Positions 2,498-17,228 of a stretch of 64,000 nt of DNA are shown piece after piece. The position numbers and the translations under genes were made by a program. Where the stretch lies: sequence record MN895435.1; one strand, 5' to 3'. The number at the start of each line of letters is the position of its first letter. Position 1 is the first letter of the stretch. The notes under the pieces are model-generated. The model was given only the letters and a program-made list of their open reading frames with translations, did no database searches and had not been told where the DNA came from. This stretch comes from Escherichia phage teqhal.

Positions 2498-2869
2498 ATG
2501 TTTAAAATCGGTAAGAAATATTGCATTCGTGAAGGTGAAGAACAGAAATATCTACTTTCTGCTAGTAATAGGAATAGTTCTATTAATGCTGTAATATCTA
2601 CAAGCGAATTTATCGTTGAAGATATGAAAGGTAATAATGTCACAATGATTAGTACAGCATCTGGAAATGATGGAAAAATTCTTCACAGTTTTCAGAGTAA
2701 TGTTCTAATTTATGATGAAGAATTTGACCTATTCGAAGAAGTTACAGAAGATTTTGATTTTGAATGCACTATCACTATGAAATCTGGCGATCCTCTTTCT
2801 TTTACAGTTAAAGATGAAAGAAGCCGCTTGAGAGTTATTAGTCTTCTTCAAGCCATTAAATTTAAGTGA
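2498..2869 (+). CDS. hypothetical protein, 123 aa
   Basis: ORF with RBS, tightly packed with neighbours. Confidence 0.5.
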   Translation: MFKIGKKYCIREGEEQKYLLSASNRNSSINAVISTSEFIVEDMKGNNVTMISTASGNDGKILHSFQSNVLIYDEEFDLFEEVTEDFDFECTITMKSGDPLSFTVKDERSRLRVISLLQAIKFK

Positions 2870-2874
2870 AAATT

Positions 2875-3135
2875 ATGAAATATATTAATCGTTCTATCGC
2901 AGCATTAGTATTAGCAGTGTCTTTAGTAGGATGTACTGATGCTGATAATGCAACTAAAGTTTTGTCTTCAAGTGGTTTTACTAATATTGAAATCACTGGA
3001 TATAACTGGTTCGGTTGCTCTGAAAATGATTTCCAACATACTGGATTTCGTGCTATTGGACCTACCGGGCAGAAAGTAGAAGGAACAGTATGTTCTGGGC
3101 TGTTCTTTAAGGATTCAACTATTCGTTTTAAATAA
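2875..3135 (+). CDS. putative lipoprotein, 86 aa
   Basis: Signal peptide followed by lipobox LVGC (MKYINRSIAALVLAVSLVGCTD); followed by a hairpin. Confidence 0.5.
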   Translation: MKYINRSIAALVLAVSLVGCTDADNATKVLSSSGFTNIEITGYNWFGCSENDFQHTGFRAIGPTGQKVEGTVCSGLFFKDSTIRFK

Positions 3136-3136
3136 A

Positions 3137-3153
3137 AGGCCTTCGGGCCTTTA
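3137..3153 (+). terminator. UUCG-loop hairpin after the lipoprotein ORF (weak terminator or RNA stability element)
   Basis: aggcc-ttcg-ggcct stem-loop followed by TT. Confidence 0.35.
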
Positions 3154-3204
3154 GCTTTATGATTACCGGAGTATAATATTCCCGAAACCAAACGAGGATA
3201 AGTG

Positions 3205-5022
3205 ATGATTAAGAATGAAATTAAAATTCTGAGCGATATTGAACATATCAAAAAGCGTAGTGGCATGTACATTGGCTCTTCTGCTAATGAAATGCATGAG
3301 CGCTTTCTGTTTGGTAAATGGGAAAGTGTTCAGTATGTACCTGGTCTTGTTAAGCTTATTGATGAAATTATCGATAACTCAGTCGATGAAGGTATTCGTA
3401 CTAAGTTTAAATTCGCGAATAAAATTAATGTTACCATTAAAAATAATCAGGTAACAGTTGAAGATAACGGTCGCGGTATTCCACAAGCGATGGTTAAAAC
3501 ACCTACCGGTGAAGAAATTCCTGGTCCAGTTGCTGCTTGGACTATTCCAAAAGCGGGTGGTAACTTCGGTGATGATAAAGAACGCGTCACTGGCGGTATG
3601 AATGGTGTTGGTTCTAGTTTAACTAACATTTTTTCTGTGATGTTTGTCGGAGAAACTGGCGACGGTCAAAATAATATTGTAGTTCGTTGTTCAAACGGCA
3701 TGGAAAATAAATCATGGGAAGATATTCCTGGAAAATGGAAAGGAACCCGTGTTACTTTCATTCCTGATTTTATGTCATTTGAAACTAATGAGCTGTCCCA
3801 AGTTTATCTTGACATTACACTAGATCGTCTCCAGACACTTGCTGTTGTTTATCCTGATATTCAATTTACCTTTAATGGTAAAAAGGTTCAGGGCAATTTT
3901 AAGAAATATGCACGCCAATATGATGAGCATGCTATTGTTCAAGAACAAGAAAATTGTTCTATTGCGGTTGGTCGTTCACCGGATGGTTTTCGTCAATTAA
4001 CTTATGTGAATAACATCCACACTAAGAATGGTGGCCATCACATTGACTGTGTTATGGATGATATTTGTGAAGACCTTATTCCACAAATCAAACGTAAGTT
4101 CAAAATTGATGTAACTAAAGCACGTGTCAAAGAATGTTTGACTATCGTTATGTTTGTTCGTGATATGAAAAACATGCGATTTGATTCTCAAACTAAAGAG
4201 CGTTTGACTTCTCCATTTGGCGAAATTCGTAGTCATATTCAGCTTGATGCTAAAAAGATTTCACGCGCTATTTTAAACAATGAAGCGATTTTGATGCCAA
4301 TTATTGAAGCTGCGTTGGCTCGTAAATTGGCGGCAGAAAAAGCAGCAGAAACTAAAGCAGCTAAAAAGGCTTCTAAAGCTAAGGTTCATAAACATATCAA
4401 AGCGAATCTTTGTGGTAAAGATGCTGATACTACTCTTTTCTTGACTGAGGGTGATTCGGCTATCGGATATCTTATTGATGTTCGTGATAAAGAACTTCAT
4501 GGTGGTTATCCATTGCGTGGTAAAGTTCTCAACAGTTGGGGTATGTCATATGCTGATATGCTTAAAAACAAAGAACTGTTTGATATTTGCGCAATCACTG
4601 GATTAGTTCTCGGTGAAAAAGCTGAAAACTTGAATTATCATAATATTGCTATTATGACTGATGCTGACCATGATGGTCTAGGAAGCATTTATCCTTCTCT
4701 GCTCGGGTTTTTTAGTAATTGGCCAGAATTGTTTGAGCAAGGACGAATTCGCTTTGTCAAAACTCCTGTAATCATCGCTCAGGTCGGTAAAAAACAAGAA
4801 TGGTTTTATACAGTCGCTGAATATGAGAGTGCTAAAGATGCTCTACCTAAACATAGCATCCGTTATATTAAGGGACTTGGCTCTTTGGAAAAATCTGAAT
4901 ATCGTGAGATGATTCAAAATCCGGTATATGATGTTGTTAAACTTCCTGAGAACTGGAAAGAGCTTTTTGAAATGCTCATGGGAGATAATGCTGACCTTCG
5001 TAAAGAATGGATGAGCCAGTAG
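3205..5022 (+). CDS. 39: DNA topoisomerase II large (ATPase) subunit, single-chain 39+60 type
   Basis: 605 aa from ATG at 3205 (track start 3202 is GTG); N-terminus MIKNEIKILSDIEHIKKRSGMYIGS is GyrB/gp39-like; continuous ORF with no bypass element. Confidence 0.9.
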   Translation: MIKNEIKILSDIEHIKKRSGMYIGSSANEMHERFLFGKWESVQYVPGLVKLIDEIIDNSVDEGIRTKFKFANKINVTIKNNQVTVEDNGRGIPQAMVKTPTGEEIPGPVAAWTIPKAGGNFGDDKERVTGGMNGVGSSLTNIFSVMFVGETGDGQNNIVVRCSNGMENKSWEDIPGKWKGTRVTFIPDFMSFETNELSQVYLDITLDRLQTLAVVYPDIQFTFNGKKVQGNFKKYARQYDEHAIVQEQENCSIAVGRSPDGFRQLTYVNNIHTKNGGHHIDCVMDDICEDLIPQIKRKFKIDVTKARVKECLTIVMFVRDMKNMRFDSQTKERLTSPFGEIRSHIQLDAKKISRAILNNEAILMPIIEAALARKLAAEKAAETKAAKKASKAKVHKHIKANLCGKDADTTLFLTEGDSAIGYLIDVRDKELHGGYPLRGKVLNSWGMSYADMLKNKELFDICAITGLVLGEKAENLNYHNIAIMTDADHDGLGSIYPSLLGFFSNWPELFEQGRIRFVKTPVIIAQVGKKQEWFYTVAEYESAKDALPKHSIRYIKGLGSLEKSEYREMIQNPVYDVVKLPENWKELFEMLMGDNADLRKEWMSQ

Positions 5023-11423: not shown

Positions 11424-12752
11424 ATGCAACTGAATAATCGCGATTTAAAAAGTATCATTGATAATGAAGCATTGGCTTATGCTATGTACACGGTTGAAAA
11501 TCGTGCTATTCCAAATATGATTGATGGATTTAAGCCAGTTCAACGATTTGTTATTGCTCGAGCTCTTGATTTGGCACGAGGAAATAAAGATAAGTTTCAC
11601 AAACTTGCTTCTATTGCAGGTGGTGTAGCGGACCTTGGATATCACCATGGTGAAAACTCTGCACAAGATGCAGGGGCTTTGATGGCTAATACTTGGAATA
11701 ATAACTTTCCTTTGTTAGATGGTCAAGGAAACTTCGGTTCTCGTACTGTCCAAAAGGCAGCAGCTAGTCGTTATATTTTTGCTCGTGTAAGTAAAAATTT
11801 CTATAACGTATATAAAGATACTGAATATGCTCCAGTACATCAAGATAAAGAACACATTCCGCCTGCTTTCTATTTGCCTATTATTCCTACTGTTCTTCTT
11901 AATGGTGTTTCCGGTATTGCAACTGGTTATGCAACTTACATTCTTCCTCATAGTGTTTCTTCTGTCAAGAAAGCTGTACTGCAAGCTCTTCAAGGAAAGA
12001 AAGTAACTAAACCGAAGGTAGAATTCCCAGAATTTCGTGGTGAAGTCGTTGAGATTGATGGGCAATATGAAATTCGTGGAACATACAAGTTTACTTCACG
12101 AACTCAAATGCATATCACTGAGATTCCGTATAAGTATGATCGTGAAACTTATGTGAGTAAAATCTTAGACCCACTTGAAGATAAAGGCTTCATTACGTGG
12201 GATGATGCTTGTGGTGAGCATGGCTTTGGCTTTAAAGTTAAATTCCGTAAAGAATATTCTTTGAGCGATAATGAAGAAGAACGCCATGCAAAAATTATGA
12301 AAGACTTCGGGTTGATTGAGCGTCGTTCCCAAAATATTACCGTTATTAATGAGAAAGGAAAGCTACAAGTTTACGATAACGTAGTTGATTTAATCAAAGA
12401 CTTCGTTGAAGTTCGTAAAACTTATGTCCAAAAACGAATTGATAACAAAATCAAAGAAACTGAATCAGCATTTCGTTTAGCCTTTGCCAAGGCGCATTTC
12501 ATTAAGAAAGTAATTTCAGGTGAAATTGTTGTACAGGGTAAAACTCGTAAAGAACTGACCGAAGAACTTTCTAAAATTGAGATGTATTCTTCTTATGTTG
12601 ATAAACTAGTTGGAATGAATATTTTTCATATGACTTCTGATGAAGCAAAGAAACTTGCTGAAGAAGCTAAAGCTAAAAAAGAAGAAAACGAATATTGGAA
12701 AACTACTGATGTAGTTACAGAATACACTAAAGATTTAGAGGAAATCAAATGA
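11424..12752 (+). CDS. 52: DNA topoisomerase II medium (GyrA-like) subunit
   Basis: 442 aa, the T4 gp52 length; N-terminal region AYAMYTVENRAIPNMIDGFKPVQRFVIARAL is the type II topoisomerase A-subunit motif. Confidence 0.9.
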   Translation: MQLNNRDLKSIIDNEALAYAMYTVENRAIPNMIDGFKPVQRFVIARALDLARGNKDKFHKLASIAGGVADLGYHHGENSAQDAGALMANTWNNNFPLLDGQGNFGSRTVQKAAASRYIFARVSKNFYNVYKDTEYAPVHQDKEHIPPAFYLPIIPTVLLNGVSGIATGYATYILPHSVSSVKKAVLQALQGKKVTKPKVEFPEFRGEVVEIDGQYEIRGTYKFTSRTQMHITEIPYKYDRETYVSKILDPLEDKGFITWDDACGEHGFGFKVKFRKEYSLSDNEEERHAKIMKDFGLIERRSQNITVINEKGKLQVYDNVVDLIKDFVEVRKTYVQKRIDNKIKETESAFRLAFAKAHFIKKVISGEIVVQGKTRKELTEELSKIEMYSSYVDKLVGMNIFHMTSDEAKKLAEEAKAKKEENEYWKTTDVVTEYTKDLEEIK

Positions 12753-12898
12753 GTCCATTCATTGGTATTACAAGCGCTGCATTAGTATCTGGCGGCATTT
12801 TACTAGCGGGGGTAGGTGTTGTTCCAGCCGTAGCAGGAGGTCTTCTTGCGTTCGGCATTCAACGTGTTATCATGACAGTTATCACAGTCATGCAGTAA
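12749..12898 (+). CDS. small membrane peptide, 49 aa
   Basis: ATGA overlap with the gene 52 stop; glycine/alanine-rich hydrophobic peptide. Confidence 0.35.
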   Translation: MSPFIGITSAALVSGGILLAGVGVVPAVAGGLLAFGIQRVIMTVITVMQ

Positions 12899-12903
12899 TT
12901 TTA

Positions 12904-12929
12904 GGGAGAGCCGAGGCTCTCCCTTTTTT
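12904..12929 (+). terminator. rho-independent terminator
   Basis: gggagagc-cgag-gctctccc hairpin followed by TTTTTT. Confidence 0.7.
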
Positions 12930-12955
12930 ATTTCAAAAATTTTTTCATAAAACGG

Positions 12956-12984
12956 TTTACAACCAAAGCATACTGTGGTACTAT
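12956..12984 (+). promoter_or_regulatory. early promoter upstream of motA
   Basis: -35 TTTACA, 17 bp spacer, TG-extended -10 TGGTACTAT; followed by conserved leader AACTATCAACTACTGATACAGAA. Confidence 0.55.
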
Positions 12985-13025
12985 ACAACTATCAACTACT
13001 GATACAGAATTACGGAGATTAGAAA

Positions 13026-13661
13026 ATGTCTAAAGTAACTTACATCATCAAAGCTTCTAACGATGTTCTGAATGAAAAAACTGCTGCGATTTTAATTACT
13101 ATTGCTAAGAAAGATTTCATTACAGCTGCAGAAGTTCGTGAGGTGCATCCAGATTTAGGTAACGCAGTAGTTAATAGTAATATTGGGGTATTGATTAAAA
13201 AAGGCCTGGTGGAGAAATCTGGTGATGGATTAATCATTACTGGTGAAGCTCAGGATATTATTTCAAATGCAGCAACTTTATATGCACAGGAAAATGCTCC
13301 GGAACTACTGAAAAAACGAGCAACTCGTAAAGCTCGCGAGATTACTTCCGATATGGAAGAAGATAAAGACCTCATGTTAAAACTTTTAGATGAAAATGGA
13401 TTTGTTCTTAAAAAGGTTGAAACTTATCGTAGTAATTATCTTGCCATTTTAGAAAAACGCACTCACGGAATTCGTAATTTTGAAATTAACAACAATGGAA
13501 ACATGCGAATTTTTGGATACAAAATGATGGAACATCATATTCAGAAATTTACTGACATCGGAATGTCATGTAAAATCGCTAAAAACGGTAATGTGTATCT
13601 TGACATTAAACGCTCGGTAGAAAACATTGAAGCAGTAATCACTGTAGCATCTGAACTGTGA
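13026..13661 (+). CDS. motA: MotA, activator of middle transcription
   Basis: 211 aa, the T4 MotA length; sequence and position between 52 and asiA as in T4. Confidence 0.85.
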   Translation: MSKVTYIIKASNDVLNEKTAAILITIAKKDFITAAEVREVHPDLGNAVVNSNIGVLIKKGLVEKSGDGLIITGEAQDIISNAATLYAQENAPELLKKRATRKAREITSDMEEDKDLMLKLLDENGFVLKKVETYRSNYLAILEKRTHGIRNFEINNNGNMRIFGYKMMEHHIQKFTDIGMSCKIAKNGNVYLDIKRSVENIEAVITVASEL

Positions 13662-13671
13662 GGAATAAATA

Positions 13672-14001
13672 ATGAACAAGTTAGAAATTGTTAATGAACT
13701 TCGTCGTTGTGCAGAACCTACCCAAGAGGGTTGGGACATCTGGTATCATGGAGCTTATCTTGGAACTATCGTAAAGATTAAGACTGGTAAATACATGATT
13801 ATTCGTGAAAGTAAAGATGCTCCAGTAGGTATTCGTAATAATTTTATGGCAGCGATAAGTTCATTTACGGATGCAGCTTACGAAATTTACCTTGCTGATT
13901 ATAAAGAATTCCAGGAATCTCAACCAGTTATTCGTTCAATTGGTGTTAACAAAGCTCAACAGAAAACTTTGTGGCAACGTATTAAAGGATGGTTTAAATG
14001 A
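13672..14001 (+). CDS. hypothetical protein, 109 aa
   Basis: ORF with GAGGAATAAATAATG RBS. Confidence 0.5.
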
Positions 14002-14459
14002 ACCCGTTTGTTAATCGTTTAAAAATGCTGAATGTTCCTTTATCTCGCGAGACTCCAGAAAGTCTTGTTCAAAAATTTAAAGCACACGGTTATAAATGCA
14101 CAGAAGAAGATATTCTGAAAGAAGTTCCTGAAATCTGTTGGCAGACTGCATATTGGGATGAAAACCAAAAGTATCAACGACGAATTGTATGTGCTGCTAA
14201 TCGGTTTAAATTAAAAGATGGACGAACTCTTATTATTCCAGGTGCTCGTCATTATTCTAAAGATATGGCAGAAGTTTTAGATGTAGTTAAACCCCAATTA
14301 GTTACTCAACAAGTTTGTGATGATGACCAAGGGTTTATTGACCAATATAGTAATTATTGGACACGTGAAGAAGCAATGATTATTGCAACTTACGCTGGAC
14401 AAGTACGTATTGAACGTGGTGGTAGTGAAAAAGAACTTTACTCTGAGGACCTTTACTAA
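13998..14459 (+). CDS. hypothetical protein, 153 aa
   Basis: ATGA overlap with upstream stop. Confidence 0.5.
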
Positions 14460-14755
14460 TGAATATTAAAAAGTTTCAAATTGATGGAATTATGAATCAA
14501 ATCCAGGCACTAGAATATGCCAATAAAATGATGTCAACTAATTGGGGAATTTATACCAATGAGCCGGGATTTAAGTTCTGTGATATGGAATTCACCAAAA
14601 AGCTCGTAGGAAAAGATTATGTATGTCCATTTAGTTCTATAATAAATGACATGCTAAAACCTGCTTTACGCGATCTTTATATTGCGATGAACGAAGAAAT
14701 GATAAAAGAATTAAAACGTCAACTGAAGGTGATTCAATTTGGCCAGGGAAATTAA
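14459..14755 (+). CDS. hypothetical protein, 98 aa
   Basis: TAATG overlap with upstream stop. Confidence 0.5.
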   Translation: MNIKKFQIDGIMNQIQALEYANKMMSTNWGIYTNEPGFKFCDMEFTKKLVGKDYVCPFSSIINDMLKPALRDLYIAMNEEMIKELKRQLKVIQFGQGN

Positions 14756-14957
14756 TTCAAAATCTGATTATTTTAATTCTCTCAATGATAAAGATAAAAA
14801 TCTAATACGGCATTTTATTGTTGAGATGGGATATACGGATACACACGATTTAAGAGAACATATATTTGAATGTGGTGTAGCTAAAAAGTTTTCATTCACA
14901 TGCAAATGTTTGAGAGAGGTAATTCAGCACTATGAACAATTTAGTCGCAAAACATAA
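14739..14957 (+). CDS. hypothetical protein, 72 aa
   Basis: ORF overlapping previous gene by 17 nt; start uncertain. Confidence 0.35.
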   Translation: MAREINSKSDYFNSLNDKDKNLIRHFIVEMGYTDTHDLREHIFECGVAKKFSFTCKCLREVIQHYEQFSRKT

Positions 14958-15040
14958 TTTTAATAAAGCTTCTGTTCATAAGGATAAGAAGAAAGCGTTT
15001 AAAGAATCTAATCGCAAACAGAAACATAAGGGGAAGGTCT

Positions 15041-15319
15041 ATGATTATTGATTCTCAATCCGTGGTTCAATACACAATCAAAATTGATATTCTAGAAAAG
15101 CTATATAAGTTTCTACCAAACCTATACCATTCAATTGTTAATGAATTAGTTGAAGAACTACATCTTGAGAATAATGATTTCTTGATTGGAACTTATAAAG
15201 ACCTCTCAAAAGCAGGATATTTCTACGTAATTCCAGCTCCAGGAAAAAGTATTGATGATGTATTAAAAACTATAATGATTTACGTCCATGATTATGAAAT
15301 TGAAGATTATTTCGAATGA
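15041..15319 (+). CDS. arn: Arn-like anti-restriction protein (McrBC inhibitor)
   Basis: 92 aa acidic protein, the T4 Arn length, immediately upstream of asiA as in T4. Confidence 0.6.
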   Translation: MIIDSQSVVQYTIKIDILEKLYKFLPNLYHSIVNELVEELHLENNDFLIGTYKDLSKAGYFYVIPAPGKSIDDVLKTIMIYVHDYEIEDYFE

Positions 15320-15480
15320 GTCATAATCTTGAAAAAGTAATCGAGCATAATGTAGCTCAGGAACGTAAGTCGTTCAAGGAATTCGTAGAAAAAATTTTTG
15401 AAGAAAATAACACAGACCAGTTTACAAATCAAGCGTCTGATGATATTATAACAAAGTCAACTAATTGAGTGGTATAGTTA

Positions 15481-15753
15481 ATGAATAAAAACATTGATAC
15501 AGTTCGTGAAATTATTACTGTTGCGTCTATTTTGATTAAATTTTCCAGAGAAGATATTGTTGAGAATCGTGCTAATTTTATTGCATTTCTGAATGAGATT
15601 GGAGTAACGCATGAAGGTAGAAAATTAAATCAGAATTCATTCCGTAAAATTGTTTCTGAATTAACTCAAGAAGATAAGAAAACCCTCATCGACGAATTCA
15701 ACGAGGGTTTTGAGGGTGTATATCGATATCTAGAGATGTATACGAACAAATAA
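15481..15753 (+). CDS. asiA: AsiA anti-sigma70 factor
   Basis: 90 aa; MNKNIDTVREIITVASILIKFSREDIVENRANFIAFLNEIGV matches recalled T4 AsiA. Confidence 0.9.
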   Translation: MNKNIDTVREIITVASILIKFSREDIVENRANFIAFLNEIGVTHEGRKLNQNSFRKIVSELTQEDKKTLIDEFNEGFEGVYRYLEMYTNK

Positions 15754-16410
15754 TTATTTAGCCCTTCCTAATATTCTGGCCGCCTGAGCGCATATTGATT
15801 CAAGGCGGTCATTACTTATATGATCATTTCTATACCAGTACATGGTTATCGTTCCAGCATAGATATTATCCAAATTAAAATATGGACAACTGTACATGTA
15901 GTTTATTTCGGGAGTAGGCTTTTTAGTTGGTAAAAAAGCAAATTTTGAGTCAGAATAATAATGACGTCCATTTAAATGAACTATATATTCATCCATAGTT
16001 TTATCAACAGGATATCCTCCAAGTGATTTTTCAGTTATTGTTGAAGGTAATCTTCCTTCGTATGCTATAATATCAACAAAATAGTTTAAGTTTTTAGGGC
16101 GGAAAGAATACACCGCACTAAAGTCTGCCTCAGATGATATATGAACTATCTGGAGTTGTTCCAGGGCGACAGATTCAAAGCGTGCATTTCTTTCCTTTTC
16201 AATAATTTCACTGTATGTTTCATACTTTGATTGCTTATAGTACTCAAAGAAACTATCTCCCCTATACCAAACAATCGCCATCATAAATAAAAGAATTACG
16301 ACAGCTACCCGGGAAGCAAGAACCTTCCCAGTAGCGTTATCTTTGAACAAGCGATCTAGAACACCAAATAGAATATCAGAGGGCGAAAATGATATTCTAG
16401 GTGCTGCCAT
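15754..16410 (-). CDS. t: holin T (lysis and lysis-inhibition)
   Basis: 218 aa, the T4 T length; N-terminal transmembrane segment and large periplasmic domain; directly downstream of gene 38. Confidence 0.85.
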   Translation of the reverse strand: MAAPRISFSPSDILFGVLDRLFKDNATGKVLASRVAVVILLFMMAIVWYRGDSFFEYYKQSKYETYSEIIEKERNARFESVALEQLQIVHISSEADFSAVYSFRPKNLNYFVDIIAYEGRLPSTITEKSLGGYPVDKTMDEYIVHLNGRHYYSDSKFAFLPTKKPTPEINYMYSCPYFNLDNIYAGTITMYWYRNDHISNDRLESICAQAARILGRAK

Positions 16411-16442
16411 AGACCCTCCTTTTAAGGATATTTATTCAAAAA

Positions 16443-17228
16443 TTATACTCTTGAACCATATATTGTACCAACCTTAGTCCAAGTTGGAGCATTACCAGTA
16501 ACAGCTTTACCGGCCGCGCCGCCGTTATATTCTGATCCTTGCCCACGAATATTACATTTACCACCTGCGGCACCAGCATCACCGCCATTCCCGCCATTAT
16601 AGATACCATTGACAGACCCTTTACCAGGTGCAGAAATAGTACCAGCAGTAGCGCCCTGTTCCATATTAGCAGACCCGCCAGCAGCACCAAATGGACGACC
16701 GCCGCCACCGCCAAAAGTCAATTTCATTTGTGAAAAAGGAGAATAATATCCGCCTCCACCGCCGCCACCGCCTCCTGCGATAACACCATTGTTGTTAATA
16801 CGCAATCTAGTTCCAATTCCATTATTTATTGCAGTTCCTCCTGCTCCACCGGCAGAGTTATTTCCGCCATTCCCGCCACGGCCCCAAACATGCACTCCTG
16901 AATTGATATTAAGTGTCACGTATGCATTAGTTAATGAGCTAGGAAAATCTAAGCATGGAACACCAGTAGATTGAGAAACAATATTTCCTGTAATAGTAAT
17001 AACAACAGGAGTACTGCCTTGGGCTTTTATCCAGTTTATTAATGTATCTTTATTATAAGAATTACTAGCACCAATGCTATAATATACTTCTTTAGATTGT
17101 CCGGCCATTGAGCTCATCCAACCGGGAACTGAAACACGGACTGCTCTCATTGCAGCATCCATCCAACGTTGTCCAGTTTCATTCACGGCAGATTCACCAA
17201 TCCAGCCAGGAACACCTACAATTGCCAT
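16443..17228 (-). CDS. 38: gp38 receptor-recognising tail-fibre adhesin, T2 type
   Basis: 261 aa; C-terminal half has several glycine-rich runs (GGGGGGGGGYY, FGGGGGRPFGAAGG, NGGNGGDAGAAGG) separated by variable segments; downstream of gene 37. Confidence 0.8.
   Translation of the reverse strand: MAIVGVPGWIGESAVNETGQRWMDAAMRAVRVSVPGWMSSMAGQSKEVYYSIGASNSYNKDTLINWIKAQGSTPVVITITGNIVSQSTGVPCLDFPSSLTNAYVTLNINSGVHVWGRGGNGGNNSAGGAGGTAINNGIGTRLRINNNGVIAGGGGGGGGGYYSPFSQMKLTFGGGGGRPFGAAGGSANMEQGATAGTISAPGKGSVNGIYNGGNGGDAGAAGGKCNIRGQGSEYNGGAAGKAVTGNAPTWTKVGTIYGSRV

Follow-up and report, generated by a model that had tools for sequence, protein, structure and literature searches.

Introduction

No large phage has been studied better than bacteriophage T4, in which about half of the genes nevertheless lack a function, among them arn.1 to arn.4 and asiA.1 (hereafter the arn.x genes). 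In phage T2, arn.4 through arn have been reported to form one transcript, whose RNA is abundant; base-pairing of the host small RNA ArcZ to the arn.2 3' end shields the transcript from RNase E, and the functions of arn.1-4 were stated to be unknown in the same preprint of June 2026 (bioRxiv 10.64898/2026.06.19.733364). The present work deals with the corresponding genes of Escherichia phage teqhal (sequence record MN895435.1), located at positions 13,672 to 15,480 of the window, that is, the whole stretch of 64,000 nucleotides (nt) that was analysed. A preliminary description of this DNA had listed here five uncharacterised early open reading frames (ORFs), and had proposed anti-defence or host-takeover functions for them from their nearness to motA, arn and asiA.

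In T4, the published omics and transposon data cover the six annotated genes of this stretch, a further ORF of 39 amino acids (aa), described below, lying outside both. Arn.2, Arn.3, Arn.4 and Arn have early RNA and are early proteins, Arn.1 is a middle protein and AsiA.1 a late protein, so that the proteome tables provide a protein time class for all six genes (PMC9697503 supplement). The early RNA in T4, as well as the T2 preprint's statement on function, bear out the naming of the ORFs as uncharacterised and early. Furthermore, HIDEN-SEQ insertions were found at 16/16 TA sites of arn.4, 33/34 of arn.3, 21/22 of arn.2, 13/13 of arn.1 and 11/11 of asiA.1 (bioRxiv 10.1101/2025.11.20.689424), and arn, arn.1-4 and asiA.1 are classified as 'Non-essential' in T4 on K-12, asiA being essential (Extended Data Table 6 of that work). 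In CRISPRi-ART, all five knock-downs were without fitness effect ('Not Fit'; PMC11879866 supplement).

Orthology and coding status

Over about 2.8 kb around these genes, DNA identity is 98.8% to Escherichia phage FriedrichMiescher (Bas39, Tequatrovirus) and 96-98% to hundreds of T4/T2/T6-like phages; in 477 phage records the match extends over 80% of the query or more, and the window can be assigned to Tequatrovirus. The five ORFs of the preliminary description (109, 153, 98, 72 and 50 aa) were recovered in the ORF list at exactly the coordinates given there, all on the plus strand. They match T4 arn.4 through asiA.1 gene for gene, with 96-99% amino-acid identity, and are direct orthologues of T4 arn.4-arn.1 and asiA.1 (NC_000866 T4p261-T4p256; older names motA.-1 to motA.-5), with order and neighbours alike; they are already catalogued genes of unknown function. 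What is usefully added here are corrected gene models, a conserved basic peptide that is putatively the partner of Arn, an ArcZ site that overlaps the start of arn.1, and the placing of Arn.3 in a large family without known fold.

Homologous stretches from 13 phages were compared, six of them from Tequatrovirus (T4, T2, Bas39 and three others) and seven from other lineages (three Mosigvirus, one each of Dhakavirus, Kanagawavirus and Karamvirus, and Klebsiella phage CP-p-KP-21072), and the ratio of non-synonymous to synonymous substitution rates (dN/dS) was obtained by the Nei-Gojobori method. For arn.4 this ratio is 0.02-0.15 against most loci, rising to 0.18 and 0.41 in the two alleles that diverge most; it is 0.04-0.36 for arn.3 (full-length comparisons), 0.10-0.46 for arn.2 where dS exceeds 0.05, 0.02-0.22 for arn.1 in its 72-aa frame, 0-0.13 for the 39-aa ORF (0.04-0.13 against other genera) and 0.2-0.4 for asiA.1, the last value coming from 3-6 substitutions only. 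All the ORFs are genuine protein-coding genes under purifying selection, far beyond chance, as their orthologues in other Tevenvirinae genera show dN/dS well below 1. The lack of conservation as coding sequence in related phages, named in the preliminary description as a finding that would speak against it, was clearly not encountered.

The genes differ in their distribution. Arn.2 belongs to PF26819 (all homologues found carry the precomputed identifier; PHROG 1844 at 1.3e-50; 96% identity to T4), its orthologues in Mosigvirus, Dhakavirus and Karamvirus being 38-44% identical, and no orthologue was found at two of the 13 compared loci. In arn.1, 28 positions are invariant across five lineages, and no relatives of known function were detected. 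AsiA.1 has acidic counterparts of 52-53 aa, beginning 'MSHNL...', in Mosigvirus and Dhakavirus. In some genera arn.2 or arn.1 is absent and extra small genes are inserted. Moreover, in phage G4498 the arn.3 allele is 75% identical in protein between flanks that are 92-98% identical (positions 1039-1658 of the fetched locus L017), which points to a mosaic operon interior in this phage. Dispensability on the standard host is thus found together with variable presence and alleles, as expected of accessory genes. G4498 also carries an extra gene of 51 aa between arn.4 and arn.3, a homologue of which, 53% identical, is found in a Klebsiella phage (fetched locus L008, 2168-2323).

The T4 reference is in error at three points here, namely arn.4, arn.1 and the 39-aa ORF. 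In the case of arn.4, the T4 reference annotates 68 aa and the window has an intact frame of 109 aa, which is also retained by wild isolates. The N-terminal 41 residues are the most conserved part of the protein; T4 has ATA where the ATG start stands, and the remaining differences in that segment are all synonymous. In the T2 record MH751506, a deletion of 2 nt affects codon 27. These lesions were located at 13672-13794 of the window, corresponding to 3334-3457 (minus strand) of the fetched T4 locus L001 and to 713-833 of the T2 locus L014, and, being present in two laboratory-strain records, could reflect relaxed laboratory selection or, for T2, a sequencing error. The gene is accordingly modelled here with 109 aa, and its product is a member of PF26821 (Arn.4), with the precomputed identifier in all homologues found, PHROG 1594 at 2.5e-54 and 99% identity to T4.

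The Arn.3 family

Arn.3 is 97% identical to its T4 counterpart, after which the family PF26092 (T4_Y16D; UniProt Y16D_BPT4) is named, and it was assigned to this family via that identity and via its homologues, 120/120 of those listed carrying the precomputed identifier. A profile search of 1.84 billion representatives yielded 3,340 clusters (50% identity) at E <=1e-3, and the domain is present in 1,615 phage records, including Straboviridae, Ackermannviridae, Stephanstirmvirinae, phiKZ-like jumbo phages and Campylobacter phages. The conserved unit comprises about 90 aa (residues 58-153) and occurs either alone, in proteins of 83-100 aa, or at the C-terminus of proteins of 200-434 aa, in the other parts of which Pfam recognised no domains. 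Across 66 distant members, H85, G112, F113, R123, Q135, L147 and E150 (window numbering) are invariant and R84, Q111, D115, S149 and the C-terminal Y153 nearly so, and the extreme C-terminus is conserved as L-x-S-E-D-L-Y.

The predicted model of Arn.3 is confident and shows a compact alpha/beta core. No solved structural neighbour was found for it, and sequence searches of the PDB with the single proteins and three profiles of the arn set were empty. In a viral structure library searched with Foldseek, the model retrieved nothing but uncharacterised phage proteins and segments of three proteins of 767-1354 aa named 'Large polyvalent protein associated domain-containing' (E 5e-3 to 8e-2, probability 0.96-1.0); the latter matches are weak, with 19-24% identity, and the Pfam models for LPD domains miss Arn.3. 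Large polyvalent proteins of phages and conjugative elements bundle counter-defence and host-modifying modules.

As regards gene context, Pfam analysis of 67 neighbour ORFs on 33 distant viral contigs gave no recurring partner of Arn.3. In phage KpV2811 its homologue adjoins primase and helicase genes. In Salmonella phage maane (Kuttervirus, Ackermannviridae; fetched locus L011, 906-3282) it lies three genes 3' of the topoisomerase II medium subunit, an arrangement similar to that of T4-like phages (gene 52, motA.1, motA, arn.4, arn.3), which may represent old synteny or a functional link. A search with tblastn of the Arn.3 core against plasmids returned one match only, and the possibility that Arn.3 is a gene of plasmid leading regions was rejected on account of this single match. 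The labels 'C-N hydrolase' and 'polynucleotide kinase', borne by two Arn.3 homologues, were likewise rejected, being unsupported by fold or sequence searches.

Because of its broad distribution and its invariant polar residues, Arn.3 would be best explained as an enzyme or a small-ligand (nucleotide-type) binder acting on something common to many bacteria. The confident model, the occurrence of the domain either alone or C-terminally in longer proteins, and the Foldseek matches to polyvalent proteins were also counted in favour of this reading. The diversity of the phage families and hosts in which it is found suggests that its role is general and not tied to particular strains, and the target, if universal, could belong to general physiology or be the object of a broadly useful counter-defence. 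As a member of a very large, phage-specific family, modelled with confidence, matching no known fold and conserved in the manner of an enzyme, Arn.3 is a good target for structural and biochemical work.

Possible functions of the arn.x genes

Taken together, the genes are probably accessory host-interaction factors, each product presumably acting on a target of its own. Arn.2, which is fast-evolving and patchy, and Arn.4, restricted to Tevenvirinae, would be the better candidates for strain-specific counter-defence binders. The anti-defence function proposed in the preliminary description fits the dispensability on K-12, the purifying selection in nature, the variable gene content, the mosaic alleles and the laboratory-strain lesions, as well as the co-transcription with arn; it rests on the neighbourhood, as guilt by association, and is a suggestion by analogy.

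Arn itself illustrates how far the analogy goes. Like the arn.x genes it is small, early, dispensable on K-12, co-transcribed and conserved across Tevenvirinae genera. Arn and the arn.x products have no sequence similarity, and Arn is strongly acidic (charge -9), whereas a neutral to basic character is seen in Arn.4, Arn.2, Arn.1 and the 39-aa ORF, Arn.3 being only mildly acidic. A second comparison is offered by recently assigned T-even anti-defence genes without known domains, such as T4 nrdC.1 (acting against Septu) and bas37_0203 (against Druantia III). These too are small and early, have an unknown fold, can be dispensed with on K-12 and are arranged in strings of similar genes, but they show conditional essentiality on particular hosts; none was seen for the arn.x genes in the three T4 comparisons considered, out of seven, and the arn.x genes are not mentioned in the main text that assigns nrdC.1 and bas37_0203 (bioRxiv 10.1101/2025.11.20.689424).

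Several points weigh against a role in host interaction or anti-defence. PADLOC, Pfam, NCBIfam and PHROGs gave no match with functional information for the arn.x ORFs. In the same three of the seven T4 condition comparisons of HIDEN-SEQ, the log2 fold changes of arn.1-4 and asiA.1 lie between -0.05 and +0.75 (q=1), and the main text of that study names other T4 genes as new anti-defence factors (bioRxiv 10.1101/2025.11.20.689424). In addition, phages with Arn.3 infect Campylobacter, Pseudomonas, Acinetobacter and enterics, a range that speaks against a narrow role in anti-defence; no shared theme or pointer to a substrate emerged from the genes around it in four further phage lineages and on two metagenome contigs, and the suggestion of an enzyme or ligand binder is drawn from the conservation pattern.

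The remote-homology search recommended in the preliminary description did not favour its proposal: no known anti-defence or defence protein resembling the ORFs was retrieved from Pfam, NCBIfam, PADLOC or PHROGs, and scans of all ORFs with the first three of these gave sub-threshold noise (Prok-E2_B, Cache, REase_II at E=0.003, Nif11 leader). As no homology to Arn or to a characterised family and no solved relative were found, the ORFs were not assigned to anti-restriction or anti-defence families. Literature searches with the family identifiers of the arn.x genes returned nothing. In the accessory-gene screen of Silas et al., Arn was used as a control and the supplement lists one AsiA.1 homologue; a search of that screen with N-terminal words found no Arn.1-4 sequence. 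Homologues of arn.1-4 and asiA.1 are widely labelled 'anti-restriction nuclease' or 'anti-sigma factor' in the databases, labels which derive from the gene names.

The alternative that survives best, although it is considered rather unlikely, is that the genes, or at least Arn.3, serve general phage physiology, such as nucleotide or nucleic-acid metabolism or the tuning of replication and transcription, bringing a small fitness gain everywhere and thus looking 'non-essential' in the laboratory. The number of records and clusters containing the Arn.3 core, its enzyme-like residue conservation, the vicinity of the topoisomerase subunit in maane and of primase and helicase in KpV2811, and the lack of a conditional phenotype in three of the seven T4 transposon comparisons would all be in agreement with such a role. 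On the other hand, no likeness to any metabolic enzyme family or fold was detected, and Arn.2 and Arn.1 are patchy and lineage-restricted, unlike core metabolism. Furthermore, widely distributed phage proteins may still be anti-defence, as in the case of the enzymes and sponges that act on immune signalling nucleotides.

Start of arn.1 and the ArcZ site

The second correction of the T4 annotation concerns arn.1, for which the 72-aa reading from TTG 14739, as listed in the preliminary description, is supported over the 43 aa of the T4 reference; the 70 nt that have been called an intergenic region are coding, being under selection as protein sequence. The 72-aa reading is preferred because of the conservation of the frame, the synonymous bias of its substitutions and the Shine-Dalgarno (SD) sequence before the TTG. 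The full frame is kept in Mosigvirus, where it starts with ATG and is 74% identical, in Kanagawavirus (61%) and in CP-p-KP-21072 (49%). Within Tequatrovirus, the N-terminal 29 codons have 0 non-synonymous against 0-4 synonymous changes; in comparison with other genera, their non-synonymous (pN) and synonymous (pS) differences are 0.18-0.40 and 0.57-0.73, respectively, like those of the C-terminal 43 codons. Moreover, TTG 14739 is aligned with the ATG of Mosigvirus and has the SD sequence GAAGGTG 7 nt upstream, while no usable SD was found upstream of ATG 14826. Residue R3 is invariant, and translation must therefore begin upstream of it.

The 10-mer CCAGGGAAAT, at the 3' end of arn.2, is perfectly complementary to nt 65-74 of E. 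coli ArcZ, as checked against the K-12 arcZ gene, and occupies +285 to +294 of arn.2, as reported for T2 (bioRxiv 10.64898/2026.06.19.733364). It is present exactly in 6/6 other Tequatrovirus loci and absent from other genera. The RNA of the arn.2/arn.1 junction folds into no more structure than shuffled sequence (z=+0.61).

Should the T4 annotation be right, arn.1 would have 43 aa from ATG 14826, positions 14756-14825 would be a non-coding spacer with an RNase E site, controlled by the pairing of ArcZ at the 3' end of arn.2, and the 72-aa ORF would be an accidental extension. The T4 and Bas39 records are indeed annotated with the short form, the T2 study treats the 70 nt as intergenic and reports that their deletion frees a His-Arn.2 reporter from ArcZ (bioRxiv 10.64898/2026.06.19.733364), and the window has both the 10-mer complementary to ArcZ and the GCATT motif just as that study describes them. 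This alternative is nevertheless very unlikely: in four other lineages the upstream 29 codons are retained at the protein level, the gene there starting with an ATG that aligns with the TTG, and their substitutions are synonymous-biased, pN being about one third of pS against Mosigvirus. The invariance of R3, a well-spaced SD for the TTG as opposed to none for ATG 14826, and a spacer RNA that is not unusually structured also speak against it, and other annotators already call the 72-aa form. Since a coding sequence may also be under the control of ArcZ and RNase E, only the 'non-coding' part is contradicted.

The longer arn.1 bears on the 2026 report on ArcZ because the 'intergenic' RNase E site and the ArcZ site both fall inside its frame. 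A wider proposal, which is held to be improbable as a whole, has two separate parts. In Tequatroviruses, the control by ArcZ and RNase E would act via translation of arn.1 and not via a non-coding spacer. Arn.3 would be a small enzyme of unrecognised fold, or a 'sponge', directed at some host factor or conserved small molecule, such as a nucleotide of immune signalling, which would account for its presence in more than 1,600 sequenced phages whose hosts are unrelated.

The 39-aa gene and Arn

The third correction is an additional gene. The ORFs listed in the preliminary description stood, but the 39-aa ORF between arn.1 and arn was overlooked there; it belongs to PF23876 (DUF7230), with 44.9 bits against a gathering cut-off of 27 and E=1.2e-11. 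The ORF is present in 13/13 comparison loci, being 100% identical within Tequatrovirus, T4 included, where it bears no annotation, and 68-87% identical to those of other genera; in 1,218 phage records it occurs in one place each. These comparisons show it to be a gene.

At all loci examined, the 39-aa ORF abuts or overlaps (by <=14 nt) the next gene. In all genera except Karamvirus, this next gene encodes 86-99 aa with a charge of -9 to -16 and the ending ..EDY(F/I); the Karamvirus counterpart has 116 aa, a charge of -7 and a different C-terminus. The genes at the Arn position were found at 2867-3166 (fetched locus L003) in Mosigvirus, 3033-3314 (L004) in Dhakavirus, 2833-3099 (L005) in Kanagawavirus and 3761-4021 (L008) in CP-p-KP-21072. 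The Pfam model DM_Arn did not match these positional counterparts; with hhalign, the more distant acidic proteins were aligned to Arn over the full length, with 88 columns and 92% probability. They look like unrecognised, highly divergent orthologues of Arn. The 39-aa ORF and the acidic Arn-like protein may well form a functional pair, as suggested by the fact that the acidic gene directly follows the ORF in every genus examined except Karamvirus; the basic peptide would then be functionally tied to its downstream neighbour, the acidic DNA mimic Arn.

That asiA.1 and the 39-aa ORF are not genes, staying open through overlap with real genes or promoter elements, is hardly credible: asiA.1 has few informative substitutions (3-6) and contains the asiA promoter-like site, and the 39-aa ORF shares 26 nt with arn.1 and 11 nt with arn and has a long SD spacing (12 nt), but this ORF retains its identity and low dN/dS against other genera where both neighbours have diverged beyond BLAST recognition and has its own Pfam family above the curated cut-off as well as the 1,218 records, and AsiA.1 has both a protein time class in the T4 proteome data and 'MSHNL...' counterparts in two genera.

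The practical value of these results lies in a corrected map of the arn operon, with an Arn.4 of 109 aa, an Arn.1 of 72 aa, an extra gene of 39 aa and putative Arn orthologues in other genera, which matters for deletions, guides for CRISPR interference and reporters in this operon.

Organization of the operon

On the plus strand, and reversed with respect to the T4 map, the gene order is gene 52, motA.1, motA, arn.4, arn.3, arn.2, arn.1, arn, asiA.1 and asiA, followed on the opposite strand by holin t and a T2-type gene 38. The same order is found in Mosigvirus, Dhakavirus, Kanagawavirus, Karamvirus and phage CP-p-KP-21072. The identities of the flanking MotA, Arn and AsiA agree with the preliminary description, with Pfam E-values of 1e-42 to 1e-66; of the ORFs that it placed between MotA and the Arn/AsiA pair, four lie there and the 50-aa ORF sits between arn and asiA. 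The coordinates are collected in Table 1.

Table 1. Features of the arn region of phage teqhal, in window coordinates
Feature	Position	Strand	Remarks
Terminator-like hairpin after motA.1, just 5' of the motA promoter-like site	12903-12924	+	Strong; 9 bp stem, T-run
Sigma70-type early promoter-like site 5' of motA	12956-12984	+	TTTACA-17-TACTAT, with TG
motA	13026-13661	+	Pfam MotA_activ 4.6e-61, MotCF 1.4e-66
arn.4 orthologue, 109 aa	13672-14001	+	ATG start; basic, isoelectric point (pI) 9.2; family PF26821
arn.3 orthologue, 153 aa	13998-14459	+	ATG start; Pfam T4_Y16D (PF26092)
arn.3 core domain, roughly aa 58-153	14169-14456	+	
arn.2 orthologue, 98 aa	14459-14755	+	ATG start; PF26819; fastest-evolving of the set
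arn.1, 72 aa (predicted)	14739-14957	+	TTG start; T4 annotates 14826-14957 only (43 aa)
10-mer CCAGGGAAAT, ArcZ-complementary	14743-14752	+	arn.2 3' end; arn.1 codons 2-5 in the 72-aa frame
Reported RNase E motif GCATT	14810-14814	+	Codons 24-26 of the 72-aa arn.1
39-aa ORF, charge about +9	14932-15051	+	DUF7230, phrog_1359; without annotation in the T4 reference
arn, DNA-mimic inhibitor of McrBC	15041-15319	+	Pfam DM_Arn 4.4e-54; the operon's known gene
asiA.1 orthologue, 50 aa	15316-15468	+	ATG start; acidic, pI 4.9; phrog_3762
Promoter-like site for asiA, inside the asiA.1 3' end	15421-15449	+	10/12 sigma70 match, extended -10 TG
asiA	15481-15753	+	Pfam 1e-42

From motA to asiA, with the 72-aa and 39-aa ORFs included, the genes are separated by gaps of <=12 nt or overlap by 1-26 nt, and a plausible SD sequence precedes every start of the string. 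This packing corresponds to the layout of a translationally coupled operon, and the genes are probably coupled. No plus-strand terminator-like site was found between the motA promoter-like site and asiA, no match to the MotA-box pattern of middle promoters was found in 12700-15900, and the Rfam scan gave nothing near threshold. The site upstream of motA, at the matching place of which an early promoter is annotated in phage SA21RB, is likely to be the start of a transcript running through the arn genes. The stretch would thus represent the distal portion of the prereplicative gene string that runs from motA to asiA in T-even phages (the 'arn operon'), in which seven tightly packed genes (arn.4, arn.3, arn.2, the 72-aa arn.1 starting with TTG, the basic 39-aa ORF, arn and asiA.1) would be transcribed from the early promoter 5' of motA.

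Finally, some features were observed in genes 38 and 37 of the window. In gene 38, on the minus strand, positions 16400-16850 have a guanine plus cytosine (GC) content of 0.47-0.49, against about 0.33 around them, with a strongly negative GC skew, and this stretch falls on the glycine-rich segments of the T2-type gp38 adhesin (261 aa). Gene 37 of the window encodes 1,260 aa.

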